A DNA stretch of 29,411 nt. Origin: an uncultured Victivallales bacterium. Its GTDB lineage: Bacteria > Verrucomicrobiota > Kiritimatiellia > UBA8416 > CAYOBW01. The notes beneath the pieces were generated by a model. That model searched no databases. It saw only the letters and a list, made by a program, of their open reading frames with translations, and had not been told where the DNA came from. Numbering within the stretch: position 1 is the stretch's first letter; each line of letters begins with the position of its first letter. Where the stretch lies: contig CAZKRK010000046.1 of assembly GCA_964555035.1 (NCBI GenBank), forward strand, positions 1 to 29,411, written 5' to 3'. The translations under genes were made by a program, and so were the position numbers. This document shows positions 2,783 to 28,463 of the stretch, piece by piece.

Positions 2783-4111
2783 CTACCGCCCAACCGCGAA
2801 TTCGTACTCGCTCAACAGTTCCATGTACGTGGTCTGCAGGTTGATGAGCCTGATGCGGCTGTTTTCGAGGTCGTTCTGACTGCGGACGTATTCGAGGATG
2901 TCGATTTCGCCGTTGTCCCAGCGGTCGGCGTAGAGCTCGGCGCGCAGCTCGGAGACCTCGATTTTATCCTGCTGGATCCGGACAAGCTGCAGGGTCTCCT
3001 TGATGCGGCGGGCAAGTTCGCGGATGGACTTGATCCTGGATTGCTTAAGATCGTCGATAGCGATTTCGTCCGAGGCAATTTCGGTTGCGACTTTTCTGCT
3101 CTTGAGCCGCTCGGTCATGCTGCCCGGCTCCCACGAGAACGCCAACCCGACGGCGGTTTCGGTGTCGCCGTCCAGACCGAAGCCGTCCTCGCTGTCGCGG
3201 CCGGTCGTGGCCGAGAGCGTCACCTTCGGCCAACGGCGGGCGCGCTGCACGGGCAGTTCGTTTTCGCGTTGCTTCTTCTCGAGCTGCGCGTTGAGGATGT
3301 CCTCGTGGTTGGTTACTGCGAAAGCGGTATCCGCCCCGACATCGAGCTTGTGTTCGGCGAATTCGAAAGAGGCGTCGATTTCGATGTCCCGCGCGACATC
3401 CATGCCGATCAGTAGCTTCAGCTCGTCGAGCGCCGACTGTATCTGGCGCCTGGCCCGCAGGACCCCGGCTTCGGACTCGGGCACCTCGATCTTGGCCGTG
3501 GCGATGTCGAGGGGCCGTTCTCTCTCCAGGGCGTGCTCGAGGTTCTTACGTGAGCGCGCCAGCTTGAGCTCGTTGATGCGCAGGGTCTGGTGGTTGCGAA
3601 TCAGGCCGTAGTAGTCCTGCTTTACGCGGTAGACCAGCTCGCGTTCGTACTTGCGGACCTTGTTGCGTTCGATAAGCTCGCCGAGAATGCTGTTGTCGAT
3701 CTCCAGCATGGATTCCCGCCACGAGCCGCCGCCGACGATGACCTTCGAGAGCTTGAGGGAGAGGTTGGCGCTTTCCGTCTCGTCATCGCCGCTGTCTTCG
3801 CGCGTGGCCTTGCCCGTAGCCGAGGCCGTGATGCCGGCGGGAAGCTCCTGCTTGACCGTGGCGGATGCGCCGAGCTCGTCTTCATCGATGCCGCGGTCGG
3901 CGGATCCGCTGAGCGTCGGCCGGAACTTGCCGCGACGGATGTGCGTTGTCAGTTCCTGTCCGTCGAGAGCCAGCCGCCGCTTGGCCAACTCGCGCGAATG
4001 GCTCACCGCGTAGTCGGTGCAATCCTCGAGGGTCATGGCGTCCCGCGCCGAAACCGGCGCAAGCGAAACCAGCAGGGTCAGGATTGCGGCTGTGACCGGT
4101 CGCTTACTCAT
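2783..4111 (-). CDS. TolC-family outer membrane efflux protein
   Basis: It has a signal peptide ([22 protein letters not shown]) and then the LTLEDC...A..HS.EL start typical of the OEP family. The rest is two long coiled-coil-like repeat halves. Its start overlaps the macB-like stop in ATGAGTAA (4104-4111). Confidence 0.85.
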
Positions 4112-6113: not shown

Positions 6114-6191
6114 GGGGCCTGCAGGAGGTGGGTGGGGCCAAAACCGATCTGACAGATCGGTCGGATCCGTCGGATCGGCCGGGCCAAATGG

Positions 6192-6228
6192 GCGCAGGTG
6201 CGGGACGCGACGCGTCCCGCATCTGCGC
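6192..6228 (-). terminator. 37-bp near-perfect GC-rich palindrome between the oxidoreductase stop and the macB start (terminator or protein-binding site candidate)
   Basis: gcgcaggtgcgggacgcg-a-cgcgtcccgcatctgcgc has 18-nt arms with one G/T position. No U-tract follows it on the minus strand. Confidence 0.4.
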
Positions 6229-6239
6229 AGATGGTCGGT

Positions 6240-7589
6240 CTAGCCGTTGAGCGGCCAGCCCTCGCGGTACTTGCGCTTGAAGCAAAGATCCTTCTCCGCT
6301 TCGGGCAAGTTCGTGATACGACCGGTCTTGGGATTGTACTCGATCTTCTTGCCCATGCGGTAGGCCACGAGGCCGAGCATGATGGACTCGAGCATCTTGC
6401 CGGAGTAGTCGAAGTCGCAGGATGTCTTGAGGTCGCCCTTGCAGGCTTTGACCCACTCGCCCTGGAAGTGACCCAGGTTCGGGATCATCTTCTCCTTCTC
6501 ACGCCGGTTGTAGTAGCTCATGTCCGCACTGTCGCCGAACGGAATAAGGAGACGGGACCTGAAATCGCAGATCAGGAAGCCCTTGTCGCCCTTGTACATC
6601 GCGCCGTGGCCGATCTTGTTGACGTCGACCCAGGATCTCGGCGACTTCGGCATCGCGCCACCCTGGTACCAGCTCATACCGATCTCCGGCCGCCAGTCGT
6701 TGGCGGGAAGCTTGCAGTGGACCTCGAGCTTGACCGGTGAAACTTCCGGATTGAACTTCTCGCCCTTGGCGGTGGCCTCGGTTGCGACGTCGGCATCCAG
6801 CGGGTTGAAGCAAAGATCCAGCGTGTGGCTGCCCATATCGCCGATCTGCCCTGTGCCGAAGTCCCAGTACATGTTCCACTTCAGGCAGTTTGCGCCGGGG
6901 CCGCCCGAGAAGTACTCCGGGTGGTAGGGATGGTACGGCGCCGGTCCGAGCCACAGGTCGTAATGCAGGTGGGGAGGCGGCTCGCCCTTGGCCGGATGAT
7001 AGCCGGGCTTCGGAATCTTGCGGTTGCCCCAGGCGTAGGCATGCTTCAGCTCGCCGATGGCTCCGTCCACGATCAGCTCACGGACGCGGTTGAAGTTGGG
7101 GCCGGCGTGGCGCTGCGTGCCGATCTGCGTCGCGAGCTTGTCCTTTTTCTCGTTATAGAGCTCGCGGACCGCGCGACACTCTTCAACGCTGATACCGATC
7201 GGCTTCTCCATGTAGACGTGGAGGTCGCGATTCAGCGCCCATGCGGAAATGTGCGCATGCGTGTGGTCGGGCGTGCAGCAGAGGATCGCATCGAGATTGA
7301 GACTCTTGTCGTCAAGCAGCTTGCGCCAGTCGATATACGTCTTTGCCTTGGGGAACTTCTTGTGCGCCGAGGCGAGGTGGTTCTCGTTAATGTCGCACAG
7401 CGCCACGACATTCTCGCTCTTGATCGAGCCTTGGTGTGCCAGGCCGCGACCCCAGACGCCGATCAGCCCGACGTTGAGCTTGTTGCTGGGAGCGTTCTGC
7501 CCGAACACCGAGATGCTCGGCAGAATGAGAGCCCCGGCTCCCGTGACAGTTGACCGCTGCAGGAATTGACGTCGGTTCATGGTGTGCAC
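6240..7589 (-). CDS. Gfo/Idh/MocA-family oxidoreductase with twin-arginine signal
   Basis: A Tat motif (MNRRQFLQRS) is followed by a Rossmann N-terminus (LNVGLIGVWGRGLAH...ALCDIN) and the MEKP motif (VYMEKPIG). The codon at 7589 is GTG, and the ATG at 7580 (MNRRQF) is the likelier start. Confidence 0.9.
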   Translation of the reverse strand: MHTMNRRQFLQRSTVTGAGALILPSISVFGQNAPSNKLNVGLIGVWGRGLAHQGSIKSENVVALCDINENHLASAHKKFPKAKTYIDWRKLLDDKSLNLDAILCCTPDHTHAHISAWALNRDLHVYMEKPIGISVEECRAVRELYNEKKDKLATQIGTQRHAGPNFNRVRELIVDGAIGELKHAYAWGNRKIPKPGYHPAKGEPPPHLHYDLWLGPAPYHPYHPEYFSGGPGANCLKWNMYWDFGTGQIGDMGSHTLDLCFNPLDADVATEATAKGEKFNPEVSPVKLEVHCKLPANDWRPEIGMSWYQGGAMPKSPRSWVDVNKIGHGAMYKGDKGFLICDFRSRLLIPFGDSADMSYYNRREKEKMIPNLGHFQGEWVKACKGDLKTSCDFDYSGKMLESIMLGLVAYRMGKKIEYNPKTGRITNLPEAEKDLCFKRKYREGWPLNG

Positions 7590-7856
7590 TCCTTGTAGGT
7601 TACTGGGGTTCCTGGTCCCTCCCGGACAAGAAATCGGATACTAACGAAAAGGAGCCGAACAAATCAAGCACCGGTTCGCTGAGTCCGCGGCCGCGGGCGC
7701 ATCTCGATCTGCTGCACTTGCCGAGTGGCCCCCACCGGGATAAGCCCGGCGGGGGGGCCTCGGCAAATGCAACAAATCGGCGCCATTGTCAATCCGCCCC
7801 GTTTGTGCCATTTTTCGAGCATTGTGAAGACCTCCACCGAGAACATTGCGGCCGGG

Positions 7857-10800
7857 ATGAGGCAGAACCGGCTCTTTCTCGACCTCGAAACAACCCGGAG
7901 CGGACGCATTCGCAAAGTCGGCGCCGTATTCGGCGATCGTGTTGTGTCGTCGGCACACGACGGGGGCGTGCAACGGGCGCTGTCCATTCTGGACCGAATA
8001 GCCGGCCAGGCCGAGTGCCTCGCGGGACACAACATCGTCGATCACGACCTGCCTGCTCTTCGCCATTGCCGTGCGGACTTGAAACTCCTGCAGGTTCCCG
8101 TGATCGATACGCTCTACCTCTCGCCGATCTGCTTTCCCGAAAATCCCTATCATTGCCTGGTCAAGGACTACAAGTTGGTCTCGGAAACCGTCAGCGATCC
8201 TGTCGAAGACGCCCGCCTGGCCGCAACGCTGTTCGAGGACGAAATCGCGTCTCTGATCGGTATCCGAGAAAGCAGTCCCGAGCTTTTCAAAGCGTTGCAC
8301 CTGCTGACCACAAAGACATCGCCGTCGGATCCCGGATCTCATGCGACCGGAATGAGGCATCTGTTCCGGAGCCTCGGGGCCGACGCGGTCACCGATGACG
8401 CGCTCGAGTGTGTCCGCGGGATGGCGGCGCAGTACGGCTGTCGAACGGCAGCCGTACGCTTGGACCACACGAACCTCACGTCCGCGCAGAAGTGCTGGGC
8501 GCTGGCCTTCGTGCTGACCTGGTTGCGCGTGTCCGGCTCGGATTCCGTCATTCCGCCCTGGGTGCGGCACCGCCACCCGTCCGTCAGCGTATTCCTTCAT
8601 GCGCTCCGGGATGTTCCTTGTGACGACGCGGATTGCCGGTATTGTGCCGAAACCCACAGTCCCGAGAAGCAGCTCAAGCGGTTCTTCGGGTTCGACTGCT
8701 TCCGACCCACGCCGCATGATGGGAACGGCGGCAGCCTGCAACGCCGCATCGTGTTGGCGGGGATGCAGGGAGAATCGCTCCTGGCGATCCTGCCGACAGG
8801 CGGCGGCAAGTCACTCTGCTACCAACTGCCCGCACTTGTCCGCAGCGTCCGGCGAGGGCAGTTGACGGTCGTGATCTCCCCCCTGCAGGCGTTGATGAAA
8901 GACCAGGTGGACGGGCTGCAACGCCGCACCGGCCTTGAAAACGCCGCCGCGCTCTACGGCCTTCTGACGCCGCCCGAGCGTGGTGACGTACTCCGACGTC
9001 TCAGGACAGGTGACATAGCGGTTCTGTACGTATCTCCGGAGCAACTCCGCAACGCTTCCTTCACCAGGGCAATCTCGCAGCGGGAGGTCGGTTGCTGGGT
9101 CGTCGACGAGGCGCATTGCCTGTCGAAATGGGGACACGATTTCCGCCCCGACTACCTCTACATCGGCCGCTTCATGCGCGAGCTCGCCAAGCGTCAGGGA
9201 TGCCCCTTGCCTCCCGTTGCCTGTTTCACCGCCACGGCCAAGCGCGATGTCGCCGAAGAGATCATGGCCTACTTTCAACGTGAGACGGCCATGCCCGTTG
9301 CCCTCTACCAGGGCGGCGTCGAACGCGAGAACCTGTGTTTCGAAGTGCAGACAGTCAGCGCGCCGGCCAAGCTGGGGCGAATCGACGAGTTGCTGCACGA
9401 CCGATTGGATGCGAACGGGAACGAAGGAAGCGCGATCGTCTTTCGTACTACGCGCCGGCTCGCCGAAGAAACGGCCGAGTACTTGTGCAACCAGGGGTGG
9501 CAGGCGGCGTTCTTTCACGCCGGCATGACGCCGCCGGAAAAGAAGCGCACGCAGGACGCGTTTCTCGACGGCGAGCTGCGCGTGATCTGCGCGACGAACG
9601 CGTTCGGCATGGGGATCGACAAGGACGACGTCAGGCTTGTCGTGCACGGCGATTCGCCGGCTTCGATCGAAAACTACCTGCAGGAAGCCGGCCGGGCGGG
9701 CCGTGATCGCGGCCGTGCCGACTGCGTGTTGCTCTATGACGAGGAGGACTGCGAGCAGCAGTTCCGTCTCGGCGCCTTTTCAGAACTGAGCCGGCGCGAT
9801 ATCGCCCAGATTCTGCGCGGGCTCCGTAAAGCCACCCGCACGCACGGCTCGGACAGCGTCGTGATCACGACCGGCGAGCTCATGCGCGACGAGGATGTCG
9901 ACACCACATTCGGGCCCGAAGACCTGTCGGCCGACACCAAAGTACGCGCCGCGATGTCCTGGCTCGAACGTGCCGGCTTCGTCGAACGCAACCAGAATCG
10001 CACCAACGTCTTTCAGGCGCGCCTCCTGGTACGCTCCACCGGGGAGGCGGAGGAGAAGCTCGCGCAGCTCGGCCTGTCCGACGCGGAGTCCCGGCTCTGG
10101 CTCGCCATCGTGCGTGAAATGATCAATGCCGGGGAAACCGACAGCCTGACCGTAGACGGGTTGGCTCTGCTGCCTGAATTCCAAGGCTATCTGAAGACCG
10201 GGGCGGAGTTCATACCGCACCATGTCGTGCGCGAGGGACGCAGCCAGGAGTATCTGAGTTCAAAGGTCCTCAAGGTCCTTAACTCCATGACGAACGTCGG
10301 GATCATGAAGAAGGATACGCTGCTCACCGCGTTCATTGCCTACAAGGTGGCCAACCACTCGCGCGTGCGTTTCGATCGGGTCTGCGCGAGCGATCGCGAA
10401 ATGCTGAAGGTGTTGATGGAAGAAGAGCCCGATCCGGAAGGCTGGCTGCCGCTCAATCTCCGTCTGCTGAACCAGACATTGCTGGATCGCGATGTTTCCG
10501 CGTCACCCCCTTTCCTGCGCAGGTTGTTGCGCAGCTTGAGCGAGGACGGCAAAGGGTTCTCGGGACAAAGGGGCAGCATCGAGTTGCGCCACGTCGGCCG
10601 CGATGCCTATCGGGTTCGGCTGCGGCGCGAGTGGGCACAGATCGCGGAGCTTGCCGAACGCAGGCGTCGCGTGGCCGGTGTGCTGCTCGACGCGATTGTC
10701 TCCAAAGTGCCGTCCGCCACTCCGCCTCGAGCGGACCTCCTCGTGGAGTTCTCTTTCGAAGAACTGACCGCCGCGCTCAACCGGGATCTCGCTCTGCGCT

Positions 10801-13073
10801 CGGACGTCCGCGACATGCAGGCCGCCATCGAACGGGGACTCATGTTCCTGCACGAGCAGAATGTCATTGTCTTGCAGCAAGGACTGGCGGTGTTCCGCTC
10901 GGCCATGACCGTTCGTGTGCTGCCTGAATCGAAAGGGCTGCGCTACACGCAGGACCAGTACCAGGCGCTCGAGCACCACTACCGCGAACGTGTGTTCCAG
11001 GTGCACGTCATGAACGAATACGCCCGGTACGGGATCGAGAAGATCCAGGAGGCGTTGGCTCTGGTTGTGGCATACTTCACAATGGAGAGGGAAGCCTTCA
11101 TTGCCCGCTTCTTCGGATCACGCCGCGAGCTCTTGGAACGTGCAACGACGGCACGCTCATACCGTCGGATTGTCGATGCCCTGGGCAACCGCGAACAGAT
11201 CCGCATCGTGACGGCGCCGCTCAACAAGAACATGCTCATCCTGGCGGGACCCGGATCGGGAAAGACGCGCACCGTCGTCCACCGGTGCGCCTACCTGTTG
11301 CGCGTGAAACGCGTGCGCCCCTCTTCCGTTCTCGTCTGTTGCTTCAACCACAAGGCAGCGCTCGAATTGCGCAGACGCCTCGCGGAGCTTGTCGGCCGCG
11401 ACGCCTGCGGCGTCACGGTTCAGACATACCACGGATTGGCCCTGCGACTGCTGGGGTTCTCGTGCAGCGCGATGAAACCGGACGCTCGCGATTCGCTCGA
11501 CTTCGACAGGTTGATCGTGGACGCCGTGGACCTTCTTGAAGGCGGAAAGGCCGCGGCTGGCCTCGAATCCGACGAAACGCGTGACCGGCTCTTGGCGGGA
11601 TACGAACACATCCTCGTCGACGAGTATCAGGACATCGACGAGGCGCAGTACCATATGATCGGCGCAATCGCCGGGCGGACCCTTGAAGATGGCGATCGCA
11701 AGCTCACCATCCTTGCCGTCGGAGACGATGACCAGTCCATCTACGGTTTCCGCGGCGCGAACGTCACGTTCATTCGCCGTTTCTGCGAAGACTTCGAGGC
11801 CGCCACACACCACCTCGTCGAGAACTACCGGTCTACCCGCTACATCATCGAAGCGGCGAACAGCGTCATTGCCCGCAACCGTGATCGAATGAAGTGCGAC
11901 TTGCCTATTCGCGTTGACGAAGGCCGCCAGCTTTCCCACCCCGGGGGGGCGATTGCCTCACTGCATCCGGAGACAAACGGACGCGTTGCCGTCGTCTCCG
12001 TGCGGGATGACGCCGCACAGGCTGTCGCCGCCGGGACCGAGATTGAGCGGCTTCGGACCCTTGGCGCGAAAGACTGGTCTCGAACGGCAATCCTCTCGCG
12101 AACGCGCCGCGATTTGTCGCTCGTACGCGTCGCGTTGGAGGCGAAATCGATTCCGGTCCAATGGCCTCTGCAGCGCAACAAGCTGCCCTCGATCTACCGA
12201 ATGCGCGAGGTCCATCGTGCTCTCGGCACACTCCGCGAGATGCGAAGCAGCAACAGAACGGCATCGGAGCTCTTCGAGCGCGTCGTCATGCCACCCGGTT
12301 CTTGCGGCAACGCGTGGGCGGGCATGATCGAATCCCTCTTGAGCGCATGGCAGGACGAAACCGGCAACGCCAGCCTTCCCGTTGGTGCTTGCGTCGATTT
12401 CCTCTACGAGTCGCTCGCACAGCGCCGGAGAGACGAACAGTTTGGCGTCGGCGTCGTCCTGAACACGGTCCACGCGGCCAAGGGAACGGAGTACGACCAC
12501 GTTATTCTTTGCGGCGATTGGTCCAATGGGAGCAATGCCGCGGACATCGAAGAAGAACGCCGCGTCTTCTACGTCGGCATGACACGTGCGCGGCATTCGC
12601 TGTGCATTCTCGATCGCGCCGATACGCGCAACCCGTTCCGTGGAGAGCTGGTTGGCCCTTGTTTCGCCCCGCGACATGAGATGGGCCCCGCGAACGGCAA
12701 TCTCGCCTATCGCGACTACACGCTGCTTGGTCTCGATGACATGTTCCTGGACTTTGCGGGCCGGCAGCCGGCCCGCCACCGCGTTCACGAGGCTCTGTCC
12801 GAGCTGAAGCCCGGAGCATCTCTGCAGGCACAAGCGCAGGATGGCCGCGTCTGGCTGGTCCATGGGGCAGGGACAACGATCGGCGCTTTGTCCGCACAGG
12901 CGACAGAACTCTGGCGCGATCGCCTCGACGACATCGACTCGATCCGCGTGGTCGGAATGTACACGCGCCTGCGCGAGGACATCGGCGACAGGAACTTCCT
13001 TGCCCGCATCCGCTGCGACTCGTGGGAAGTCCCGGTCTGCGAGGTCCGCTCCATGCCGGCCGGGCAGGACTGA
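7857..13073 (+). CDS. Giant triple-fusion protein: DEDD 3'-5' exonuclease, RecQ-type SF2 helicase core and UvrD/PcrA-type SF1 helicase
   Basis: Residue numbers follow the 7725 ORF. Exonuclease motifs are LFLDLETT (aa 50-57) and GHNIVDHDL (aa 101-109). RecQ motifs are LPTGGGKSLCYQLPA, VVDEAHCLSKWGHDFRPDY, ATNAFGMGIDKDDVRLVVH and YLQEAGRAGRD (aa ~320-675). UvrD motifs are LILAGPGSGKTRT, ILVDEYQDID, VGDDDQSIYGFRGA, VENYRST, TVHAAKGTEYDHV and FYVGMTRAR (aa ~1160-1630). I chose the Met at 7857 as the start because the DxE motif then lies 6 residues in. The ORF is open from 7725. Confidence 0.85.
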   Translation: MRQNRLFLDLETTRSGRIRKVGAVFGDRVVSSAHDGGVQRALSILDRIAGQAECLAGHNIVDHDLPALRHCRADLKLLQVPVIDTLYLSPICFPENPYHCLVKDYKLVSETVSDPVEDARLAATLFEDEIASLIGIRESSPELFKALHLLTTKTSPSDPGSHATGMRHLFRSLGADAVTDDALECVRGMAAQYGCRTAAVRLDHTNLTSAQKCWALAFVLTWLRVSGSDSVIPPWVRHRHPSVSVFLHALRDVPCDDADCRYCAETHSPEKQLKRFFGFDCFRPTPHDGNGGSLQRRIVLAGMQGESLLAILPTGGGKSLCYQLPALVRSVRRGQLTVVISPLQALMKDQVDGLQRRTGLENAAALYGLLTPPERGDVLRRLRTGDIAVLYVSPEQLRNASFTRAISQREVGCWVVDEAHCLSKWGHDFRPDYLYIGRFMRELAKRQGCPLPPVACFTATAKRDVAEEIMAYFQRETAMPVALYQGGVERENLCFEVQTVSAPAKLGRIDELLHDRLDANGNEGSAIVFRTTRRLAEETAEYLCNQGWQAAFFHAGMTPPEKKRTQDAFLDGELRVICATNAFGMGIDKDDVRLVVHGDSPASIENYLQEAGRAGRDRGRADCVLLYDEEDCEQQFRLGAFSELSRRDIAQILRGLRKATRTHGSDSVVITTGELMRDEDVDTTFGPEDLSADTKVRAAMSWLERAGFVERNQNRTNVFQARLLVRSTGEAEEKLAQLGLSDAESRLWLAIVREMINAGETDSLTVDGLALLPEFQGYLKTGAEFIPHHVVREGRSQEYLSSKVLKVLNSMTNVGIMKKDTLLTAFIAYKVANHSRVRFDRVCASDREMLKVLMEEEPDPEGWLPLNLRLLNQTLLDRDVSASPPFLRRLLRSLSEDGKGFSGQRGSIELRHVGRDAYRVRLRREWAQIAELAERRRRVAGVLLDAIVSKVPSATPPRADLLVEFSFEELTAALNRDLALRSDVRDMQAAIERGLMFLHEQNVIVLQQGLAVFRSAMTVRVLPESKGLRYTQDQYQALEHHYRERVFQVHVMNEYARYGIEKIQEALALVVAYFTMEREAFIARFFGSRRELLERATTARSYRRIVDALGNREQIRIVTAPLNKNMLILAGPGSGKTRTVVHRCAYLLRVKRVRPSSVLVCCFNHKAALELRRRLAELVGRDACGVTVQTYHGLALRLLGFSCSAMKPDARDSLDFDRLIVDAVDLLEGGKAAAGLESDETRDRLLAGYEHILVDEYQDIDEAQYHMIGAIAGRTLEDGDRKLTILAVGDDDQSIYGFRGANVTFIRRFCEDFEAATHHLVENYRSTRYIIEAANSVIARNRDRMKCDLPIRVDEGRQLSHPGGAIASLHPETNGRVAVVSVRDDAAQAVAAGTEIERLRTLGAKDWSRTAILSRTRRDLSLVRVALEAKSIPVQWPLQRNKLPSIYRMREVHRALGTLREMRSSNRTASELFERVVMPPGSCGNAWAGMIESLLSAWQDETGNASLPVGACVDFLYESLAQRRRDEQFGVGVVLNTVHAAKGTEYDHVILCGDWSNGSNAADIEEERRVFYVGMTRARHSLCILDRADTRNPFRGELVGPCFAPRHEMGPANGNLAYRDYTLLGLDDMFLDFAGRQPARHRVHEALSELKPGASLQAQAQDGRVWLVHGAGTTIGALSAQATELWRDRLDDIDSIRVVGMYTRLREDIGDRNFLARIRCDSWEVPVCEVRSMPAGQD

Positions 13074-13139
13074 GTTCGTCGATCGCTCCGCCTATGCCGC
13101 CCCTCCGGGGCTTGTTTCCATGCTCGACGCATGTGCGGC

Positions 13140-13251
13140 AAACGTAGGTCCGATTTGCAATCGGACCCAACTCCGGTCGGGTCTGGTCAGCCGTGGCGTT
13201 ATCTGAGGCAACCAGCGGGGTTGGGTCCGATTGCAAATCGGACCTACGTTT
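13140..13251. repeat. Double-hairpin palindromic element (32-nt perfect inverted arms, 48-nt spacer), same family as 1856-1985
   Basis: 13140-13171 (aaacgtaggtccgatttgcaatcggacccaac) is the exact reverse complement of 13220-13251. The internal hairpin GGTCCGATT-TGC-AATCGGACC resembles GGCCGGATT-TGT-AATCCGGCC. It sits between convergent helicase genes. Confidence 0.85.
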
Positions 13252-13350
13252 ACCGCTCACGCACGTTCCGGCCCTCGGGGAGTCACGAAGCATCCGCTTC
13301 TTCCGCACGAAGGTGTCACAGTTGTTTCCGAGAGGTAAGGTAGTCTGGGC

Positions 13351-16122
13351 CTACGGTCGCGCCAACTCCGCCTCGACGCGCGCGACGAGGTCCAGTCCCT
13401 CTTGGAGAGCACCATCGCCGTCGCTTCCGCCGCCGTCGAAGGCGGCCAGGGCAGAGACGAGGGCTGCGGGTTCTGTCGGGAGCTCGGAACCGTCGCCGTC
13501 GGGCTTTGTTCCGGGACCGTGGTGCAGGACGACGACCGCTTCGCGCCCCGCTCCCAGAACCGTCGCAAGGTGCGGGAGTGCCTGCTCCGCAAGACCCACA
13601 CCCGCCAACGCCTCGACGGCCTTGCGCTCGGCTGCGGTCGTTGCCCAGACCTTGCGTGCCGCGGCACGGTGGAGCTTCGGCTTGGGCCGTTCCCGCGGGG
13701 GCAATGGCGTGTAGCCGTCGGCGGCATGTACCGTATCGATGTCGGCGGACAGCGTGAGGATGCCCATTTCCTGAAGCCGCAGCAGCATCGCGTGCATCTC
13801 CGGCGTAATGACCTCGGCCGTGGCGCCTGCCGCCTCGGCCGTATCGCGAAGCGCATCGAGGTCCGTTCCGGGGCGCGACACGACTACCGTCCCGCCGGTT
13901 TTGGCGTTGCGTTCGATGCCGAGGATGATGTCCGCGTGGCGCGCCGTGAGTTCTTCCTTCAGTGTCCTGGGTTTCTCTTCGCGAGCCGGTGGGGCAGGCG
14001 CCACGGGCTCCCCGCCCAGCAATTCGCCGACGCGCGCCGCAAAGGCCTGGCGACCGGTTTTGCCGCTCGGCCGTTCCTCGAACGCGGCCCCGTCCAGCAC
14101 GGAGTCGGCCAGCGCGGTCTTGTACGCCAACTTGTCGAGCATGGCGCTTTCGATCGAGCGTTCCGCGACCAGGTTGACGACGCGCACGCTTCGCTTCTGG
14201 TGCTTGCGCCAGGCCCGCGCGATGCGCTGCTCCAGCTTCGCCGGATTCCAGGGCAGGTCGAGGTTGATCACGATGTTCGCGGCCTGCAGGTTCAGACCCG
14301 CGCCGCCTGACTCGGACGAGAGAAACACGCGGCAGTCGGCATTCTGCTTGAACATGCGGATCTGCTCGCGCCGTTTCTGCTGGGGGATTCTGCCGGTGTG
14401 TTCCGCGAACCCGATTCCTTTTGCGGTCAGCAGTTCCTTTACGAGGTCGAGCATGCGCACCCACTCCGAGAATATGATGACCTTCGCCTCCGGGTCGTCA
14501 CCCAGCAGGTCGTCGAGGATGTTCTCCAGCTCCTCCAGCTTCGGACAGTCACGGCACTCGGGGTCAAGGATGTAGGGCGTGTCGCAGATCATGCGCATGC
14601 AACCCAGCAAGAGCAGAAGGCGTTCCTGCTCCTTCTTCGTCAACGGGCGCCGTTTCATGATCGAAACGAGCATGGCCACGTCGTATTCGATCTCGGCATA
14701 GCGCGCCCGCTGCTCTTTTGTCATGGAAACGAAGAAGTTCTTGTCGGTACGTTCCGGCAAGGCGTCTTCGACGTCGCTCTTGCGGCGGCGCAACATCACC
14801 GACGAGACCGTGCGGTGCAGCTTGTCCAGGTTCCTGGGGCGGACCTCGTTGTCGGAAGTGAGTTCCATAAACGCGCGCTGAAAACGGAAGAGCGACCCGA
14901 ACACGTGTGGGTCGACGAACTCGACCAACGAGTACAACTCCTCGATGCGGTTTTCCAAGGGCGTTCCGGTCAGCACGAATGCGTATGGACTGCGCACCCG
15001 CTTGATCGTTTTGGCGGTCTTCGTGGGCCAGTTCTTGATGCGTTGCGCCTCATCGAGGATGACGAGGTCCGGAACGAGCAGGCGGTTGATATCGTCCACG
15101 TCATTGCGTACCTGCTCGTAGTTGCAGAGGCTGTACGGATGCTCCTCGGCATAGAGGCGCAGGCGGGCGGGCCGCGATCCGAAGACCGGCTTGGCCTGGC
15201 GGCCGGTGAACTGCATGATCTGGTCCTCCCACTCCGCCTTGAGCGAAGCGGGGCTGACCACCAGCACGCGGCGCACGCGGCCGGACTGGCGCAGCAGCTC
15301 GGCGGCGGCAATCGCCTGCACCGTCTTGCCGAGCCCCATCTCGTCGGCCAGCAGGGCGCGACCGGTGAAAGCCAGATGTGCCATGCCCGCTTTCTGATAG
15401 GGGTACAAGGGAAGGACAACGGGGTTGTCGGTGCGTTTGGCGGCTGCCACGTCGCGATCGAAATGCCGCCGCAGCTCGTCAAGGTCCGTCCTGAACCTCT
15501 CTCGCTCGAGCCAGTAGTCGACGTGTTCGGACAGACGCACGCCCTTCCGCGCCGATGCGGTGAGCATGGCCGTGGCGCGTTCCGCGGCCGTGCACGCGTC
15601 CGTATTGCCGGCCAGGGCGAAGCCTTCATCGCCGAACAGCGACCCCACGCGCCTCTCGACCGCGGCGATGCCCGCTGCCGGCCGCAACAGGCGCAACCGC
15701 GGATTGGGTCCGCGAACGTCCATGAAAATCTCGTAGGCAGGCGATCCCGCCTTTGCCGCGCGGGCAAAGGCGCGCTTCTTGCGGTGCTGGATGAACTGCC
15801 GCACACGCTCGATGTGCTTGCAGCACCCGAGGCGGTTCATGCGGTAGTCCTGACACGAACAACTGTTCAGGTTCTCCGACAGACTCCGAATCTCGACGCG
15901 GTAGGGTTGCTCCCACTGCGTGGACGAGACCTCGAAGAGACCGTGGAAATCGTCACGCATCGCCACGCGGGTGACCTGCGCCTTTTCCTTCTCGGCACTC
16001 TCGCGCCGCAGCACGATGCTCTGCTCATCCGTCGGAAAGCCAACCCGTTTCGGTGGCCGTTTCTGGACCTGTTTGGCCTTCTTGCTTCTGCGTTTCTTCC
16101 GCGTCTTCCGTTCCAAGCTCAT
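13351..16122 (-). CDS. SNF2-family helicase/translocase with N-terminal SWIM zinc finger and an uncharacterised C-terminal extension of about 230 aa
   Basis: The SWIM motif CSCQDYRMNRLGCCKH is at aa 88-103. SNF2 motifs are LLADEMGLGKTVQAIA, the DEAQ box (VILDEAQRIKN) and LTGTPLENR. The helicase-C region includes SSESGGAGLNLQAANIVINLDLPWNPAKLEQRIARAWR. The N-terminus is highly basic (KTRKKRRSKKAKQVQKRPPKR). Confidence 0.9.
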   Translation of the reverse strand: MSLERKTRKKRRSKKAKQVQKRPPKRVGFPTDEQSIVLRRESAEKEKAQVTRVAMRDDFHGLFEVSSTQWEQPYRVEIRSLSENLNSCSCQDYRMNRLGCCKHIERVRQFIQHRKKRAFARAAKAGSPAYEIFMDVRGPNPRLRLLRPAAGIAAVERRVGSLFGDEGFALAGNTDACTAAERATAMLTASARKGVRLSEHVDYWLERERFRTDLDELRRHFDRDVAAAKRTDNPVVLPLYPYQKAGMAHLAFTGRALLADEMGLGKTVQAIAAAELLRQSGRVRRVLVVSPASLKAEWEDQIMQFTGRQAKPVFGSRPARLRLYAEEHPYSLCNYEQVRNDVDDINRLLVPDLVILDEAQRIKNWPTKTAKTIKRVRSPYAFVLTGTPLENRIEELYSLVEFVDPHVFGSLFRFQRAFMELTSDNEVRPRNLDKLHRTVSSVMLRRRKSDVEDALPERTDKNFFVSMTKEQRARYAEIEYDVAMLVSIMKRRPLTKKEQERLLLLLGCMRMICDTPYILDPECRDCPKLEELENILDDLLGDDPEAKVIIFSEWVRMLDLVKELLTAKGIGFAEHTGRIPQQKRREQIRMFKQNADCRVFLSSESGGAGLNLQAANIVINLDLPWNPAKLEQRIARAWRKHQKRSVRVVNLVAERSIESAMLDKLAYKTALADSVLDGAAFEERPSGKTGRQAFAARVGELLGGEPVAPAPPAREEKPRTLKEELTARHADIILGIERNAKTGGTVVVSRPGTDLDALRDTAEAAGATAEVITPEMHAMLLRLQEMGILTLSADIDTVHAADGYTPLPPRERPKPKLHRAAARKVWATTAAERKAVEALAGVGLAEQALPHLATVLGAGREAVVVLHHGPGTKPDGDGSELPTEPAALVSALAAFDGGGSDGDGALQEGLDLVARVEAELARP

Positions 16123-16269
16123 GTGCGCCTCAATACGTTGTCCGTGAATAAGCGATGTCCGGCAAGACTAGCCATGGAGAGGGGCGGGGTGCAAGAACTC
16201 TCGCAACCCTAACGACAGAAACGTGACCGATGACGTGGGGTAGCCATAGAAGCAAGCTCGCCGGCGCTC

Positions 16270-16297
16270 AGGCTCACACCTTGTAAAGTGTGAGCCT
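16270..16297. promoter_or_regulatory. Palindrome AGGCTCACAC-N8-GTGTGAGCCT overlapping the regulator stop codon, upstream of the SNF2 gene (operator or terminator candidate)
   Basis: It has a perfect 10-bp stem and the loop CTTGTAAA. The same stem sequence recurs at 16897-16930. Confidence 0.45.
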
Positions 16298-16907
16298 ACC
16301 CCTCCATGCAAGCGATTCGTACCAACTCATGCGCAAGAGGCGATAACTTCCGCGCCAGGGCGTATGTCCCGCGTTGGTTCCGGACGACAATGTCACGGCG
16401 CACCAGTTTGCTCACATGACGCTTCATCGCCGGCAGAGAAATGCCGCATCGAACAACCAGTGCCACAATCGACAACCCCGGCGAGCGATTCAGTTCCCGC
16501 ACGATCCGGATGCGTCTAGGATGTGTGAAAGCTGTAAGGTTCCGAAACGCCCCCTCGATGGCGCCTAGGCGCCTGGAAAGCTGTCGTTTCATCGCGGTGA
16601 CAAGGGCCTCGGAAAACGAGATCGTGCTGTTTGGAGACACAGTGTACACGACCCAACGACTCGTCCGCCGCGCATCCAGGATGCCTCTGGCGTTGAGAGC
16701 CCGAAGACATTGGCTCGCACTGGATTCCGATATGCCTACCTGCGCGGCGACATCGGAGACGCACTGCCGTTGATGTCGAAGCAGAAACCGCAACACAGCG
16801 AGCCGTCTCCGGTTCGCCAATGCCCGGCATGTGCGCCAAAGCGTAGGACTGAGTGAACGCGCGTTCTCCATACCATCTCCAAGTAGACACCTCAACGCCA
16901 GGCTCAC
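16296..16907 (-). CDS. Transcriptional regulator with two tandem ArsR/SmtB-type winged-helix domains
   Basis: Domain 1 reads RTCRALANRRRLAVLRFLL...QCVSDVAAQVGISESSASQCLRALNARGIL. Domain 2 reads FTHPRRIRIVRELNRSPGLSIVALVVRCGISLPAMKRHVSKLVRRDIVV. The first 12 codons overlap the upstream palindrome, so the Met at 16871 (MENARSL) may be the real start. Confidence 0.75.
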   Translation of the reverse strand: MSLALRCLLGDGMENARSLSPTLWRTCRALANRRRLAVLRFLLRHQRQCVSDVAAQVGISESSASQCLRALNARGILDARRTSRWVVYTVSPNSTISFSEALVTAMKRQLSRRLGAIEGAFRNLTAFTHPRRIRIVRELNRSPGLSIVALVVRCGISLPAMKRHVSKLVRRDIVVRNQRGTYALARKLSPLAHELVRIACMEG

Positions 16908-16930
16908 ACGTTATAAGGTGTGAGCCTGGC
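16897..16930. promoter_or_regulatory. 34-bp palindrome GCCAGGCTCACAC-GTTATAAG-GTGTGAGCCTGGC at the 5' end of the regulator gene (operator candidate)
   Basis: It has a perfect 13-bp stem and a TTATAA-centred core. It shares the GGCTCACAC/GTGTGAGCC arms with 16270-16297. Confidence 0.45.
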
Positions 16931-17062
16931 GTCAATCAGAAACTCGTGGCATCGGCATCCAAGCCAGGTTCCTTGACTGCGGCGACTACTACGACGTTGG
17001 TCTTGACAAGTACTGCCCACTGAGCGCTGGGATGGCAGAAGTCCTTACCTCGTGGAACTATC

Positions 17063-17170
17063 GGTGACACCATTGATTGATGATTCCCGATTGATGATTT
17101 GTGATTTTCGAAGTACTTCACAAATCATCAATCATAAATCGCTAGTCATCAATCAGACGAAGGTGTCACC
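17063..17170. repeat. 108-bp AT-rich imperfect palindrome (MITE/REP-like) built from ATTGATGATT-type units
   Basis: The termini GGTGACACC (17063-17071) and GGTGTCACC (17162-17170) are complementary. The inner 14-bp perfect stem is TTGATGATTTGTGA (17091-17104) paired with TCACAAATCATCAA (17118-17131), with the 13-nt loop ttttcgaagtact. The region between is degenerate but alignable. Confidence 0.8.
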
Positions 17171-17334
17171 TTCATTTTCCGCGGTGCAGTCATCCCGGTC
17201 AGAGCGTAGATTCAACGTAGCCGCCCAGAGGACAAGTGTTTGCGACGAAGCCACGGTTCTGTGTGCGGCCGGGCGGGGTAAGGTTCTCTGGATGGAGTAG
17301 AAGGAAGTCCTCGTCTGTTTCCCAAAGTGCACTC

Positions 17335-17462
17335 ACGTTTGCTCTCAACGCCGGTGTCGCCCACAACCCAAGTGTGGCATAGGTAGAAAAACGGGAAGGT
17401 AAGAAGATGGGAGAATTGACGGCATCATCTTTCTACCATCCCATCTTTCTGCCTATCATCTC
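17335..17462. repeat. Copy A of a ~125-bp dispersed element (CAACCCAAGTGTGGCA head and GGCAGAAARATGGG-type inverted units)
   Basis: It aligns by eye along its length with 28337-28463, in the same orientation, with many identical positions. The internal arms ggtagaaaaacgggaaggtaaga and tctttctaccatcccatctttctgcc are imperfectly complementary. Confidence 0.75.
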
Positions 17463-17636: not shown

Positions 17637-17705
17637 GGACTGCGCGTCGTCGTCACTGCAGACTGAACAGTCTTTTGCCTATTCGCCCGCTGTAGGCGGC
17701 CTAGC

Positions 17706-17732
17706 GGCGGAGGACCGCCGTCTCCAGTGGCG
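17706..17732 (+). repeat. 27-nt motif GGCGGAGGACCGCCGTCTCCAGTGGCG, copy 1
   Basis: A reverse-complement copy lies at 20827-20849 and a direct copy with one mismatch at 20940-20966. It contains the GGCGG-AGGA-CCGCC mini-hairpin. Confidence 0.7.
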
Positions 17733-17892
17733 TCTCCGCAGGGCGCGTAGTCGCTTTCTGTGTGTAATAGGCAGGACAAGCCCGGCGGGGCTACTCTGAA
17801 AGTGCAGCAAATTGCAGATGCGCCCAGCGGCAGCGTACGCTCATAACACTCTTGCCCCCGCCGCGCCTCTCGTGCATGCTTACCGGGAGCGC

Positions 17893-20811
17893 ATGAAAAG
17901 CAGCCCTTTCACACCTATCCGCCTTCTCCACCTCGCCGTCGCAGGCACAATCGCCGCCTGCGCCGGGGGATGTCGTGAGGAACAGGAACAGTCGCCGCGC
18001 CGGGCGTTCGAGCTCGACCTGCGCGATCGCGGAGTCGTGCTGCAGCGGATTACCTACGGGCTGCCCGAAGAGTCGACCGCACGCGTCATACGCTTCGACC
18101 GGCGCGGGTTGCTGCGCTGTGCCCTCTACCTGCGCGACAGCAGCGACGAGAACTCGTTCATATACGTGGACCACGTTGGTGTGGTCACCCGGAACGGCAG
18201 GATTGCGACGACCTTGAAGGAGTACGGGGAATTGCTGGTGACGGGCGACCAACAGGCCCTCTACATCGACGGTACGCCTTTGCCCGTCAACACAAAGGGA
18301 TGGGACACGTTCTGGGTGTCCGCTGACGAAGCCGAACCGGACGTGACCCAGAGAACGTATGCCCCCGTGGACCTGTTCGACAGCTTCATGCGCACCGAGC
18401 TGACGAACGGCTTCTGCCGCGTGACCGACGGTTCCTGGGAGCTCAAACAACGCGGCGGCGGAATGCCGACGGAGGAAGAGGACTACCACAACGCCAGTTT
18501 TCAGCGGGCCGTCAACCCCTTCTCCATCCGGGGCGAAGAGCAGGGCCGGTTGACGTACGGTGACGACGATTGGATGAACTATCACGCTGAGGCGAGCTTC
18601 TACTTCGGCATACCGCGAACGATAAGCTGGAGCGATGCAGAGAACCTGCCCGTCGAAACGGACATGCTCATCGCGCAGGGCACGACCAACGGAAACCAGG
18701 TAGCGTTCGGCTGGTCCGGGCGCCATCGCGGATTCGTCCTCATGTCCCGTAGCGGTTCGTCCCTCTGGAAGGTGCTCGAACGCTGGGGCGGCAAGCGTCC
18801 CCCGCTGACGAACTGGTGCCGTATCGGTCTGCGCATCCACGCCGGCTATATCGCCGAAGGCATGCTCGACCGCAAAGCCGTACTGCGCACAAACCTGGCC
18901 ACGTGCATTGTCGGTCCATTCCACGTCATTGCGGGAGAGGCCCCCATCGAGGCCGACACGATTCGCGCCTACTCCCTGCCGCCAAAGCCGAACCTGGGCG
19001 ATACGGCGCACGTCAAGAGCCGCTTCTTCTCGGCCAAGAAGGAGCTCGGCAAATCCCGCGACCCGACGCAGTTCGGGGAGTGGTCCAAGTCTACCAGCGT
19101 TTTCGTGGAGTCACGCGAGACCGATACCAACGGCAATCACAAGGCCGTCATCACGATGCGGGTGCCGCTCATGGGCGACTTCACGGTCGACTCGGTGCCG
19201 TTCGACGACGAGGCCGGCGCCATACCGCCGGGCCCGTACGAGTTCGCCTTCCGGATAGCCGATACAAACGAGTTCGAGGCCATCATGGAGCATCCGCCGG
19301 TCCTCTCGCTGAAGGCCAGGCTCTCAGGCACGGGCTGGGCGCTTGAAGACCTGCCGGAAGATGTCTGGCCCGCGGGCCACCGCGAATTCGCTCTCCGCTT
19401 CGCCCGGCGAAGGGCCGAGGACAACAGGATCGTCGTTCTCTGCGGCGGGTCTGCGACGCCGCTTTCGCCCCCGCTGACGGAGCCGTTGCTCGTATCGGTT
19501 GCGCGCGTGGAAAAGGGCGGCAAACCGGATTACCCGTTCCCGCAGCATCACCTCATCCGTTGCGCAAACCTCGCAAACGAGTTGTTCGAGGAAGCGCCGG
19601 CGGATTGGAGCTGGATCGAAGGCGCCTTCCGCATGGATTGCCGCTGGGCCTGCATGAACCAGTGGAATTTCATGGCGTGCGGCTCGCCCGGCATCCCCTA
19701 CATGACCAGCAAGCGGACTTTCACGGGCGACCAGGTGCACGAGTGCTTCATGTCGTTGCGGCCGGCCCAGCCCTGCGACGCGTACGACAAGGACTTCTTC
19801 TATGACCGCAAAAAGGACGGCGGTCTCAGGCTGTTCCGCGCCAACGGCGGCTGGTACAACCGACGCGATCTCAACGTCTGTTTCTGCACCAACGGCCGCG
19901 ACCCCCTTTCCGGCTACAGCATCGTGTTTGCCGGGAGAGACAACAAGGAGACGTTTCTCCTGCGCAAAGGACGCGTCGTGGCTGCCTCCCAGAACAAGAA
20001 GTTCCTCTTCCACGGCACAAGCCATTCGAGCGTTCACTGGAAATGGTGGAAGTTCACGGTCGACAAGCGTGGCGGCCGTATCCGGTGTTCGCTCAACGAC
20101 ACCGTTATGTTTGACTATCACGATCCCGAGCCGATTCCCGGGGGACACCTTGGTTTCTGGTCCGTGCGCAACGGCTTCACGCTGGCACGCGTCATTTCCG
20201 TCGCCGAATCGGTCGGTTTGGAGCCGCACGCCCTGTTCGTAGGTGACGATGAGGACAGCCCGTGGGTGCCCCTCAAGCGCGACAGCGTTGTTGTCACGCG
20301 CTCATCCGGGGCCGGACTCACCCGCGCCACCGCCACCGTAGGCGGCGGGTTCTTCGCCATGCGCTACACGCTCCCCGTTCCGGTCGATTTGAACAAAACG
20401 CCCGTCATGAAACTGCCGCTTGACATCGGCTACGAAGCGGCCGTGAATCTTCACGCCGATATCGGCGGCACCGCATACGTGATTCCCCTGACGGCGCCCA
20501 TCTCCGAGATGAAAGCGTTGCTGGCCCCGGAATTCGAAAAGGGAGAGTGTTTCAAAATCCCGACCATCGACGAAGCCGTCATTCTACAGACGCGCTACCT
20601 TCGCAACGCCCGCCTGACTCACAATCTGTTGACCGTGGACTTCGCCGCGGCCCTGGAGGAGACCGGCGAGAAGCCCGAGACGCTGGAGCTCAGGAGCATC
20701 ACCATCGGCAACAGCAGCAACCAGGGCTACCTGTTGGCCGGAGCGAACGGCAGAAACGCGGCCGGCGCATGGTACGAAGTAGGTGTGCCCACATTCCGGA
20801 CACGTCAGTAA
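17893..20811 (+). CDS. Large predicted lipoprotein of unknown function with probable concanavalin-A/LamG-like beta-sandwich modules
   Basis: MKSSPFTPIRLLHLAVAGTIAAC has a lipobox-like IAAC. Segments such as GGWYNRRDLNVCFCTNG...GYSIVFAGRDNKETFLLRKG...GGHLGFWSVRNGFTLARV resemble the DUF1080/LamG-type fold; that fold assignment is inference. The ORF is open from 17812. Confidence 0.65.
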   Translation: MKSSPFTPIRLLHLAVAGTIAACAGGCREEQEQSPRRAFELDLRDRGVVLQRITYGLPEESTARVIRFDRRGLLRCALYLRDSSDENSFIYVDHVGVVTRNGRIATTLKEYGELLVTGDQQALYIDGTPLPVNTKGWDTFWVSADEAEPDVTQRTYAPVDLFDSFMRTELTNGFCRVTDGSWELKQRGGGMPTEEEDYHNASFQRAVNPFSIRGEEQGRLTYGDDDWMNYHAEASFYFGIPRTISWSDAENLPVETDMLIAQGTTNGNQVAFGWSGRHRGFVLMSRSGSSLWKVLERWGGKRPPLTNWCRIGLRIHAGYIAEGMLDRKAVLRTNLATCIVGPFHVIAGEAPIEADTIRAYSLPPKPNLGDTAHVKSRFFSAKKELGKSRDPTQFGEWSKSTSVFVESRETDTNGNHKAVITMRVPLMGDFTVDSVPFDDEAGAIPPGPYEFAFRIADTNEFEAIMEHPPVLSLKARLSGTGWALEDLPEDVWPAGHREFALRFARRRAEDNRIVVLCGGSATPLSPPLTEPLLVSVARVEKGGKPDYPFPQHHLIRCANLANELFEEAPADWSWIEGAFRMDCRWACMNQWNFMACGSPGIPYMTSKRTFTGDQVHECFMSLRPAQPCDAYDKDFFYDRKKDGGLRLFRANGGWYNRRDLNVCFCTNGRDPLSGYSIVFAGRDNKETFLLRKGRVVAASQNKKFLFHGTSHSSVHWKWWKFTVDKRGGRIRCSLNDTVMFDYHDPEPIPGGHLGFWSVRNGFTLARVISVAESVGLEPHALFVGDDEDSPWVPLKRDSVVVTRSSGAGLTRATATVGGGFFAMRYTLPVPVDLNKTPVMKLPLDIGYEAAVNLHADIGGTAYVIPLTAPISEMKALLAPEFEKGECFKIPTIDEAVILQTRYLRNARLTHNLLTVDFAAALEETGEKPETLELRSITIGNSSNQGYLLAGANGRNAAGAWYEVGVPTFRTRQ

Positions 20812-20826
20812 CGCTCGGAGACTGGT

Positions 20827-20849
20827 ACTGGAGACGGCGGTCCTCCGCC
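20827..20849 (-). repeat. 27-nt motif family, copy 2 (inverted), 15 nt after the lipoprotein stop codon
   Basis: actggagacggcggtcctccgcc is the exact reverse complement of the first 23 nt of copy 1. Confidence 0.7.
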
Positions 20850-20939
20850 GTTACGGAGCAAGGTGTTGAGCACAAACGGAAACAGAAGTGAACGAAGTTC
20901 CCGCATGTTCCACCAAGTGCGCACTCACTTGCGCGCAAC

Positions 20940-20966
20940 GGCGGAGAACCGCCGTCTCCAGTGGCG
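20940..20966 (+). repeat. 27-nt motif family, copy 3, 20 nt upstream of the next ATG
   Basis: ggcggagaaccgccgtctccagtggcg differs from copy 1 at one position. Confidence 0.7.
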
Positions 20967-28336: not shown

Positions 28337-28463
28337 TCGTTTCCCTAACGTGGGCACGGCCAACAACCCAAGTGTGGCACAGGCAGAAAAATGGGTTGGC
28401 AGAAAGATGGGGATATTGAGGGTGTCGTTCCTCTGCCAGCCCATTTTTCTGCCTTTCATTTCT
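28337..28463. repeat. Copy B of the ~125-bp dispersed element (see 17335-17462)
   Basis: It contains a 22-bp hairpin with one mismatch, GGCAGAAAAATGGGTTGGCAGA (28382-28403) paired with TCTGCCAGCCCATTTTTCTGCC (28432-28453). The head caacaacccaagtgtggcacagg is shared with copy A. Confidence 0.75.

Follow-up and report, generated by a model that had tools for sequence, protein, structure and literature searches.

The stretch of DNA analyzed here, 29,411 nucleotides of contig CAZKRK010000046.1 from an uncultured Victivallales bacterium (the window, hereafter), carries on its minus strand a gene for a small regulator with two winged helix-turn-helix (wHTH) domains of the ArsR type in a single chain, bracketed by two copies of the same palindrome. 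Comparison of homologous loci makes it likely, in our judgment, that gene and palindromes together form a self-contained module, in which a single-chain double-ArsR repressor is encoded along with two copies of its own 28-bp operator, one in front of the start codon (O1) and one across the stop codon (O2). In the mechanism that we propose, repressor bound at O1 would exclude RNA polymerase and bring about negative autoregulation, while O2 would raise the occupancy of O1 by cooperative binding or by DNA looping over ~630 bp, and may in addition be a roadblock separating the regulator gene from the SNF2 helicase gene that follows it. The recognition helix of domain 1 would read the inner 4 bp of each half-site and that of domain 2 the outer 3–4 bp, with an invariant CACAC between the two zones, and one operator would be filled by two chains, i.e. 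by four wHTH domains. Binding, repression, stoichiometry and looping are all things that we infer from the sequences compared below.

There is nothing unusual in the basic logic of such a module, in which an autorepressor acts on a palindromic operator. The significance of the module is that an annotation which said no more than "ArsR family" can now be replaced by a defined family of ~390 clusters at 50% identity, with a fused single-chain form of a normally homodimeric repressor, whose halves appear specialized for different parts of the half-site, and with a simple amino-acid-to-base code that could be tested by specificity swap at residues 150, 147, 54 and 55. The two-operator design seems to be conserved together with a promoter that resembles the sigma-70 type and is mostly leaderless, in phyla where little work has been done on promoters and regulators, and synthetic biology could draw from the family a ready supply of orthogonal repressor-operator pairs.

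The regulator, its family and the paired palindromes

Scanning the whole window for GGCTCACAC-N8-GTGTGAGCC returned two copies, at 16271-16296 and 16901-16926, and no other, even with ≤3 mismatches allowed; the expected count is 0.01, two matches were found in 0 of 100 shuffles, and the pair is non-random. A pair of same-arm palindromes around the regulator gene had been pointed out in an earlier reading of the letters alone (the sequence-only reading), and it is borne out here, with an upstream copy at least as good as was then described. The perfect arms of O1 (Table 1) enclose the center GTTATAAG, its dyad lies between 16913 and 16914, and the 28-bp footprint common to the family covers 16900-16927. 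O2 has its dyad between 16283 and 16284 and shares its last 2 nt with the TAG stop codon (16298-16296, minus strand), and the SNF2 ATG (16122) begins 148 nt past it, which confirms the earlier statement that the second palindrome overlaps the stop about 150 nt before the SNF2 start. The start of the regulator at the Met at 16871, also proposed then, agrees with the 191-amino-acid (aa) database gene model and with homologues, which align from M-x(5-10)-L-x-P-T-L-W-R-T-C-R onward. With this start O1 ends ~25–26 nt before the ATG and lies outside the coding sequence (CDS), so that the claimed overlap with the 5' end of the reading frame does not hold. In the bases immediately outside the two palindromes, checked for a target-site duplication, there is no direct repeat.

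By predicted fold and by sequence the regulator is assigned to the ArsR/SmtB superfamily. Pfam models HTH_20, HTH_5, HTH_24 and MarR_2 match in both halves, the only NCBIfam match is the generic HTH_metalloreg model NF033788 (85 bits, in two stretches of the protein), and a profile search of the PDB places domain 1 near 2kko, SmtB, HlyU and NolR, and domain 2 near YgaV and BigR. An AlphaFold2 (AF2) model made with 33 homologues (predicted local distance difference test, pLDDT, 95.3; predicted template modeling score, pTM, 0.89) contains two full copies of the a1-a2-a3-aR-b1-b2-a5 unit, which pack together as a single rigid body. Domain 1 would take up residues ~9–98, with its recognition helix at 49–61, and domain 2 residues ~104–189, with its recognition helix at 146–158; the halves are 24% identical to each other. 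Foldseek against the PDB gave target-normalized template modeling (TM) scores of 0.6–0.77 to single ArsR chains and no full-length analogue of the regulator, the other hits being low-TM multi-wHTH proteins (RPC62, SelB). No catalytic domain appears among the profile matches, and wHTH domains are all that Pfam, NCBIfam and the AF2 model contain. Among the invariant columns of the family alignment there is neither a CXC in a3 nor a His/Asp/Glu cluster in a5; a single cysteine (C15, in a1) is near-invariant, and two histidines (H117, H152) are conserved. The norm in the ArsR/SmtB superfamily is a homodimer of chains of ~100–120 aa, whereas this regulator is one 191-aa chain with two diverged domains. 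As a fused double-domain chain, with recognition helices that appear specialized and without sensing motifs recognizable in the alignment, it departs from the ArsR/SmtB definition.

A protein collection clustered at 90% identity contained 369 homologue matches, and a search of 1.84 billion representatives at E ≤ 1e-30 yielded ~389 clusters at 50% identity, all of ~190 aa. Named members come from metagenome-assembled genomes (MAGs) of Kiritimatiellia, Lentisphaeria, Verrucomicrobiota and Planctomycetes, and on the evidence of these searches the double-ArsR family is discrete and restricted to bacteria of the Planctomycetes-Verrucomicrobia-Chlamydiae (PVC) group. The contigs that bear homologues, up to 378 kb long, are chromosomal. 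Plasmid and phage collections held no homologues of the protein, plasmids held no DNA similar to the window, and a literature search with the palindrome strings and for tandem ArsR proteins returned no description of the double-ArsR family in the searchable literature.

For comparison we assembled 80 further loci from a metagenome scan. An exact CACAC-N8-GTGTG lies ≤250 nt upstream of the homologue in 58 of 82 loci and ≤250 nt downstream in 40 of 77, with more on either side when one mismatch is allowed, and only a handful of copies occur elsewhere in the ~250–360 kb that these loci comprise; a start-proximal site is found in ~70 of 83 loci. At a locus with an 81% identical homologue (L054), the same palindrome recurs 27 nt before the ATG and across the TAG stop, and the genes downstream encode an ECF sigma factor and an alpha-2-macroglobulin, not SNF2. 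On both sides of a 60% identical homologue (L055), which lies among TPR genes, stands a palindrome that is related to the one in the window but not the same, GGCACAC-TTYGCRAA-GTGTGCC, and in three representative-genome loci with the exact arms of the window a homologue directly adjoins the palindrome. All-against-all clustering of the neighboring open reading frames (ORFs) at 85 loci found no recurring gene family; the largest non-self cluster came from 5 loci and includes the GFO/IDH/MocA gene beside the window's own locus. Across the loci compared, the palindromes travel with the regulator gene and not with its neighbors.

How the half-sites are probably read

The extent of the site was defined by aligning 140 unique sites on their dyad, with positions (d) counted outward from it. 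The bases at d5–d9, CACAC, are essentially invariant, and d3 is a T-A position with a Watson-Crick symmetry of 0.97, while the other positions vary between loci: d1, d2 and d4 with a symmetry of 0.66–0.79, d10–d12 with 0.81–0.88, and d13–d14 with 0.54–0.60. From d15 onward there is no conservation, and symmetry is 0.25, the background value. Because symmetry falls to background at this point, we take the unit of the family to be a fixed 14+14-bp site with two-fold symmetry, and not a stem of arbitrary length. The half-site consensus is ATTCTCACACTTTG, and the half-site of the window is AGGCTCACACCTTA.

The main argument for the operator reading comes from the variable positions, whose bases co-vary with residues of the encoded protein. 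When mutual information was calculated between alignment columns and half-site bases at 73 non-redundant loci, 6 of the 10 top-ranked residues fell inside the two recognition helices. For domain 2, an aromatic residue 150 (Y, F or W) goes with T at d12 in 31/31 cases and a lysine there with G at d12 in 5/6, and at residue 147 proline goes with T at d10 (43/49), arginine with G at d11 (5/5), and tryptophan with G at d10 plus A at d11 (3/3). For domain 1, residue 54 as glutamate accompanies C at d2 (10/10) and as leucine T at d2 (10/10), and residue 55 as tyrosine, cysteine or histidine accompanies T (29/32), C (8/11) or A (4/5), respectively, at d4. These pairings are chemically sensible, matching lysine and arginine with guanine, glutamate with cytosine, and aromatic residues with thymine. 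The window obeys the code, with Q54, C55, P147 and K150 in the protein, and T at d2, C at d4, T at d10 and G at d12 in its sites.

The association also appears among close relatives. In pairs of sequences ≥55% identical, base changes were scored for an accompanying residue change, which was present in 37/41 cases for d12 with residue 150, 39/43 for d10 with residue 147, 34/34 for d2 with residue 54, 27/40 for d11 with residue 147, and 7/12 for d4 with residue 55. One pairing, that of aromatic 150 with T at d12, was tested within the subfamilies defined by residue 60 and recurs in all three (p = 0.0026, 0.0014 and 0.089), being significant in two of them. Downstream copies follow the same code as upstream copies, and at the variable positions the upstream and downstream copies of one locus match at 0.82, compared with 0.49 between loci. 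Because the variable bases follow the recognition-helix residues in this way, the palindromes are very probably double-stranded DNA operators of the regulator encoded between them. The sequence-only reading had proposed as much, and on this point the family-wide sites and the covariation support it.

The same data bear on how an operator is occupied. Domain 1 tracks the center of the palindrome and domain 2 the outer arm, therefore the two domains do not read equivalent positions of the arms. Both domains of a chain probably read the same 14-bp half-site, and a palindrome would accordingly need two chains. A single chain had earlier been pictured as a pseudo-dimer that could fill one palindrome by itself, an idea which the division of labor between the domains speaks against. 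The least conserved position of the core, d7, lies midway between the two contact zones.

Promoter-proximal and second sites

When the proximal sites are oriented by gene direction, a conserved CTTGAC appears at -24 to -19 from the dyad. Exact TTGAC (-23 to -19) is present in 28/68 proximal sites in the direction of the gene and in 0/68 in the opposite direction, as well as in 1/45 downstream sites and 0/19 distal upstream sites. On the other side of the dyad, positions +1 to +6 read NAAAGT in the family, 53 of the 68 proximal sites carrying A at +2 and T at +6, and the ATG begins at +12 to +16 in 42 of 68 loci, which is where transcription would be expected to start. Judged by this profile, the family promoter is of the sigma-70 type with a 17-nt spacer, the operator covers the spacer, the -10 element and the start site, and most mRNAs of the family would be leaderless. 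The window member has the predicted -35 and -10 elements listed in Table 1 and a predicted start near 16901, which would leave a leader of ~30 nt carrying GGAG, whereas most homologues have no room for a leader. Generic scans of 16000-17450 for sigma-70 promoters and intrinsic terminators called nothing. Since O1 lies between the -35 and the predicted start, repressor bound to it would keep RNA polymerase out, and autoregulation from the upstream palindrome, as first suggested from the letters, fits this geometry.

A second site appears, from the loci compared, to be the rule of the family, at a position that is flexible. Of the non-redundant loci, 54 could be assessed: exactly two sites occur at 38 of them, three at 4, a single one at 7 and none at 5, and at least two of these last five (L113, L126) carry variant cores, e.g. 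CGGAC or CAGAC. The second site lies just past the stop in 31 loci and 70–300 nt upstream in 13, and a second upstream site is enriched where the downstream one is absent (10/21 vs 3/33, Fisher p = 0.0024). Of 25 loci with a convergent next gene, 19 have a downstream site, and of 31 with a co-directional one, 15 do; a T-rich tail (≥5 T among the first 8 nt beyond the stem) follows only 1 of 45 downstream sites. Because the position of the second site is flexible, with upstream and downstream copies substituting for each other, O2, which has neither promoter features nor a U-tract, is most likely an auxiliary operator.

It had been suggested that the second palindrome serves to control the SNF2 gene, and a mainly SNF2-directed role, with bound repressor blocking the SNF2 promoter or read-through from the regulator gene, would be compatible with the module as proposed. 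The arrangement in the window lends itself to this: O2 lies upstream of the co-directional SNF2 gene, there is no obvious independent SNF2 promoter or terminator between O2 and its ATG, and at 15 loci the downstream site likewise precedes a co-directional gene. We nevertheless regard such a role as unlikely, for the genes behind the site differ at L054 and L055, downstream sites are more common before convergent than before co-directional genes and nearly always lack the -35 motif, and a missing downstream site is replaced by a second upstream one, which points to a role linked with the promoter of the regulator itself. O2 may act locally on SNF2 as a roadblock, though this would not be a conserved function. 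A dedicated unit of regulator and SNF2 gene was also considered, and was rejected on the ground that no neighbor family recurs.

Table 1. Positions of the regulator gene, its putative control elements and the SNF2 gene in the window.
Feature	Coordinates	Strand	Description and basis
Operator O1, promoter-proximal palindrome (putative)	16895..16932	.	Perfect 15-nt arms 16895-16909 + 16918-16932
Operator O2, auxiliary palindrome, 28 bp (putative)	16270..16297	.	10-nt arms, center CTTGTAAA
Regulator CDS, 191 aa + TAG stop	16296..16871	-	Gene model P0001 (191 aa), N-terminal homologue alignment
Shine-Dalgarno-like GGAG	16877..16880	-	Read from sequence; 5 nt before ATG 16871
Predicted -35 TTGACG	16930..16935	-	Sequence and family CTTGAC profile
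Predicted -10 TAACGT	16908..16913	-	16-nt spacer, inside right half of O1; family NAAAGT profile
SNF2-family helicase, 923 aa	13351..16122	-	Pfam SNF2-rel_dom + Helicase_C

Rival readings, related systems and other features of the window

Several observations count against the module as we propose it. The covariation between residues and bases is not fully corrected for phylogeny, and the geometry that it implies is tight, with the two recognition helices of a chain spaced by ~8–9 bp, under one helical turn, and the two domain 1 units of an operator only 5–7 bp apart across the dyad. The predicted -10 of the window was not called by the generic scan because it matches TATAAT at only 3 of 6 positions. 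No regulated target beyond the regulator's own gene was identified; Pfam searches with 10 ORFs that flank extra GGCTCACAC sites in representative genomes gave one thioesterase match, and ORF calling in this GC-rich DNA is unreliable. Finally, the palindrome can also multiply in the manner of a repeat. Most representative genomes with the arms of the window have 1–4 copies, but in the MAG CALGXT01 the 26-mer GGCTCACACTTTGCAAAGTGTGAGCC is dispersed in at least 15 identical copies with the extended consensus CATNGGCTCACACTTTGCAAAGTGTGAGCCNATG (loci L001, L002, L007, L012, L016-L019, L023, L025, L026, L030 and L039-L041), which share sequence beyond the 28-bp footprint, their flanks being symmetric out to position 17 (CATNGG...CCNATG). 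Three of these copies are at contig ends, many lie beside another GC-rich repeat (gagacctcgc...cggggcg), and TTGAC as a -35 is present only at the copy next to the regulator gene (L018). Local arrays occur as well: L080 has seven operator copies at 3429-4149, with a period of 92/182 nt, between the regulator gene and uvrA, and L022 has at least nine tandem copies at 5777-6660 beside the regulator gene, broken by an assembly gap.

These amplified copies leave some room for broader readings of the pair, which we hold to be quite improbable: a co-evolving, amplifiable combination of operator and binder, similar to REP/RAYT (repetitive extragenic palindrome/REP-associated tyrosine transposase) systems and free of the nuclease, or an operator pair that would loop the whole gene into a self-insulating autoregulatory unit. 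It is very unlikely, in turn, that the palindromes are repeats like REPs or miniature inverted-repeat transposable elements (MITEs), or terminal repeats of a cassette, that merely flank the regulator as REPs flank RAYT genes. Beyond the copies in CALGXT01 and the arrays, such a reading could point to the palindrome-gene-palindrome unit in two different neighborhoods of one metagenome sample, and to other doublets in the window that resemble REPINs (paired REP hairpins). Against it stand the two copies, and no more, in the window; the ~250 kb of flanks at 73 loci, which are almost without remote copies, local arrays apart; and the symmetry that stops sharply 14 bp from the dyad. Bases that track recognition-helix residues would be unexpected in a repeat defined by structure only. 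At the four homologue loci with annotated neighbors, no adjacent transposase, RAYT or other gene for mobility was noted, no neighbor family recurs across the loci, the regulator lacks a catalytic domain, and neither the plasmid nor the phage collection has a homologue of it. The second copy has no fixed place and lies upstream instead of downstream of the gene in 13 of 54 loci. The sequence-only reading had offered terminal inverted repeats of a mobilized cassette as an alternative, which is disfavored by this placement, by the lack of mobility genes at the annotated loci and of recurring neighbor families, and by the missing plasmid and phage homologues.

That the palindromes act as RNA hairpins, with the first as a 5' mRNA stabilizer or translation mask, the second as a 3' terminator or exonuclease block, and the protein irrelevant to both, is extremely unlikely, even though the predicted folds are very stable (-33.5 and -24.8 kcal/mol, z-scores -9.4 and -6.0), O2 stands right at the 3' end of the CDS, and downstream sites are more common before convergent genes: by the -35/-10-like geometry transcription would begin where the proximal palindrome ends on its 3' side, and in 42/68 loci at the ATG itself, so that the palindrome would be outside the mRNA; the center is self-complementary right up to the dyad (symmetry 0.66–0.97 at d1–d4), which a loop does not need; T-rich tails are almost absent and no terminator was called in 16000-17450; distal upstream copies cannot be 3' elements; and Rfam gave no match, only sub-threshold miRNA noise. 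The pairing of a 5' stabilizer with a terminator, which had also been put forward from the letters, is disfavored on the same grounds of promoter geometry and tails. Extended stems were considered as a sign of termination and set aside, no difference in stem extension being seen between upstream and downstream copies (p = 0.31).

The closest parallels to the proposed module are the ArsR/SmtB autorepressors with 12-2-12 operators (SmtB, CzrA, CadC, NolR, HlyU), which have the same wHTH fold that is seen in each half of the regulator, and likewise a palindromic operator of similar size that overlaps their own promoter, an arrangement which here we infer by comparison of loci. SmtB can load two dimers, i.e. 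four wHTH domains, on one 12-2-12 site, and this is paralleled by the two tandem chains proposed for the regulator. In contrast to these proteins, the two recognition helices of the regulator differ and would read different parts of the half-site, no obvious metal or redox motif of the alpha3N or alpha5 kind is seen in its alignment, two operators per gene are the rule, and the family is limited to PVC-group bacteria. A promoter operator with a second cognate operator at a flexible distance is also known from the lac (O1/O2/O3), gal (OE/OI), deo and ara systems, whereas the second site here typically lies just past the regulator's own stop, such that the pair brackets the whole gene, and looping is a proposal.

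REP/RAYT systems (REPINs) resemble the module in that a gene is flanked by a pair of palindromes, sometimes dispersed, whose sequence is lineage-specific and matches the protein. Unlike RAYTs, the regulator is a wHTH protein without an HUH nuclease (IS200/IS605-like Y1) domain, and its palindromes usually come as two copies, with a fixed 28-bp limit of symmetry and no conserved 5' GTAG, dispersal being seen in one MAG only. Replication initiators of iteron plasmids (RepA of pPS10, RepE, pi) also have two winged-helix domains per chain that read adjacent parts of a site, and an inverted-repeat operator at their own promoter, and arrays of sites occur here at L080 and L022. Unlike them, the regulator has no plasmid homologues and its contigs are chromosomal, Pfam and NCBIfam detected no sequence relationship, and the arrays consist of full palindromes, not of direct half-site iterons.

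The window contains further repeats. REPIN-like inverted doublets lie at 1855-1985 and 13129-13262, with arms of 45–47 nt that are 91% complementary and ~40 nt apart, and each arm holds a 21-nt hairpin with a TTTGYAA center, GGCCGGATTTGTAATCCGGCC in one form and GTAG-GTCCGATTTGCAATCGGACC in the other. The second doublet is located between convergent helicase genes and has the GTAG that is characteristic of REP elements. The 25-mer GTAGAACCGTTCTCCAGGACGGTTC (GTAG plus hairpin) occurs as two mutually inverted copies at 2686-2710 and 2750-2774. It recurs unchanged in other metagenome contigs, at L055 4113-4137 and L056 5837-5861, upstream of the 60% identical regulator homologue, and thus represents a second conserved repeat family common to related organisms.

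An AT-rich palindrome of 82 nt (17074-17155, in the region 17064-17170), with GATTGATGATTTGTGA motifs and flanked by GGTGACACC and GGTGTCACC, occupies the divergent region upstream of the regulator. Two independent metagenome contigs, L051 and L052, start precisely at its right end, a hint that the assembly breaks there or that the place is a structural boundary. The convergent genes mentioned above encode large helicases, namely a 1782-aa DEAD-box/UvrD fusion (7725-13073, plus strand) and the SNF2 protein, and both match PADLOC defense models (DpdF/GajB and DpdE/ZorD, respectively), matches which may reflect no more than generic helicase similarity. A direct repeat of 104 nt (17359-17462 and 28359-28462, 77% identical) lies upstream of two different ORFs; inside it, AGGCAGAAAAATGGGTTGGCAGA and its complement form an inverted repeat of 23 nt, and Rfam matches to it do not rise above noise. 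A 999-aa ORF at 17812-20811 is flanked by three occurrences (17702-17728, 20827-20855 and 20934-20962) of the GC hairpin motif CGGCGGAGGACCGCCGTCTCCAGT.

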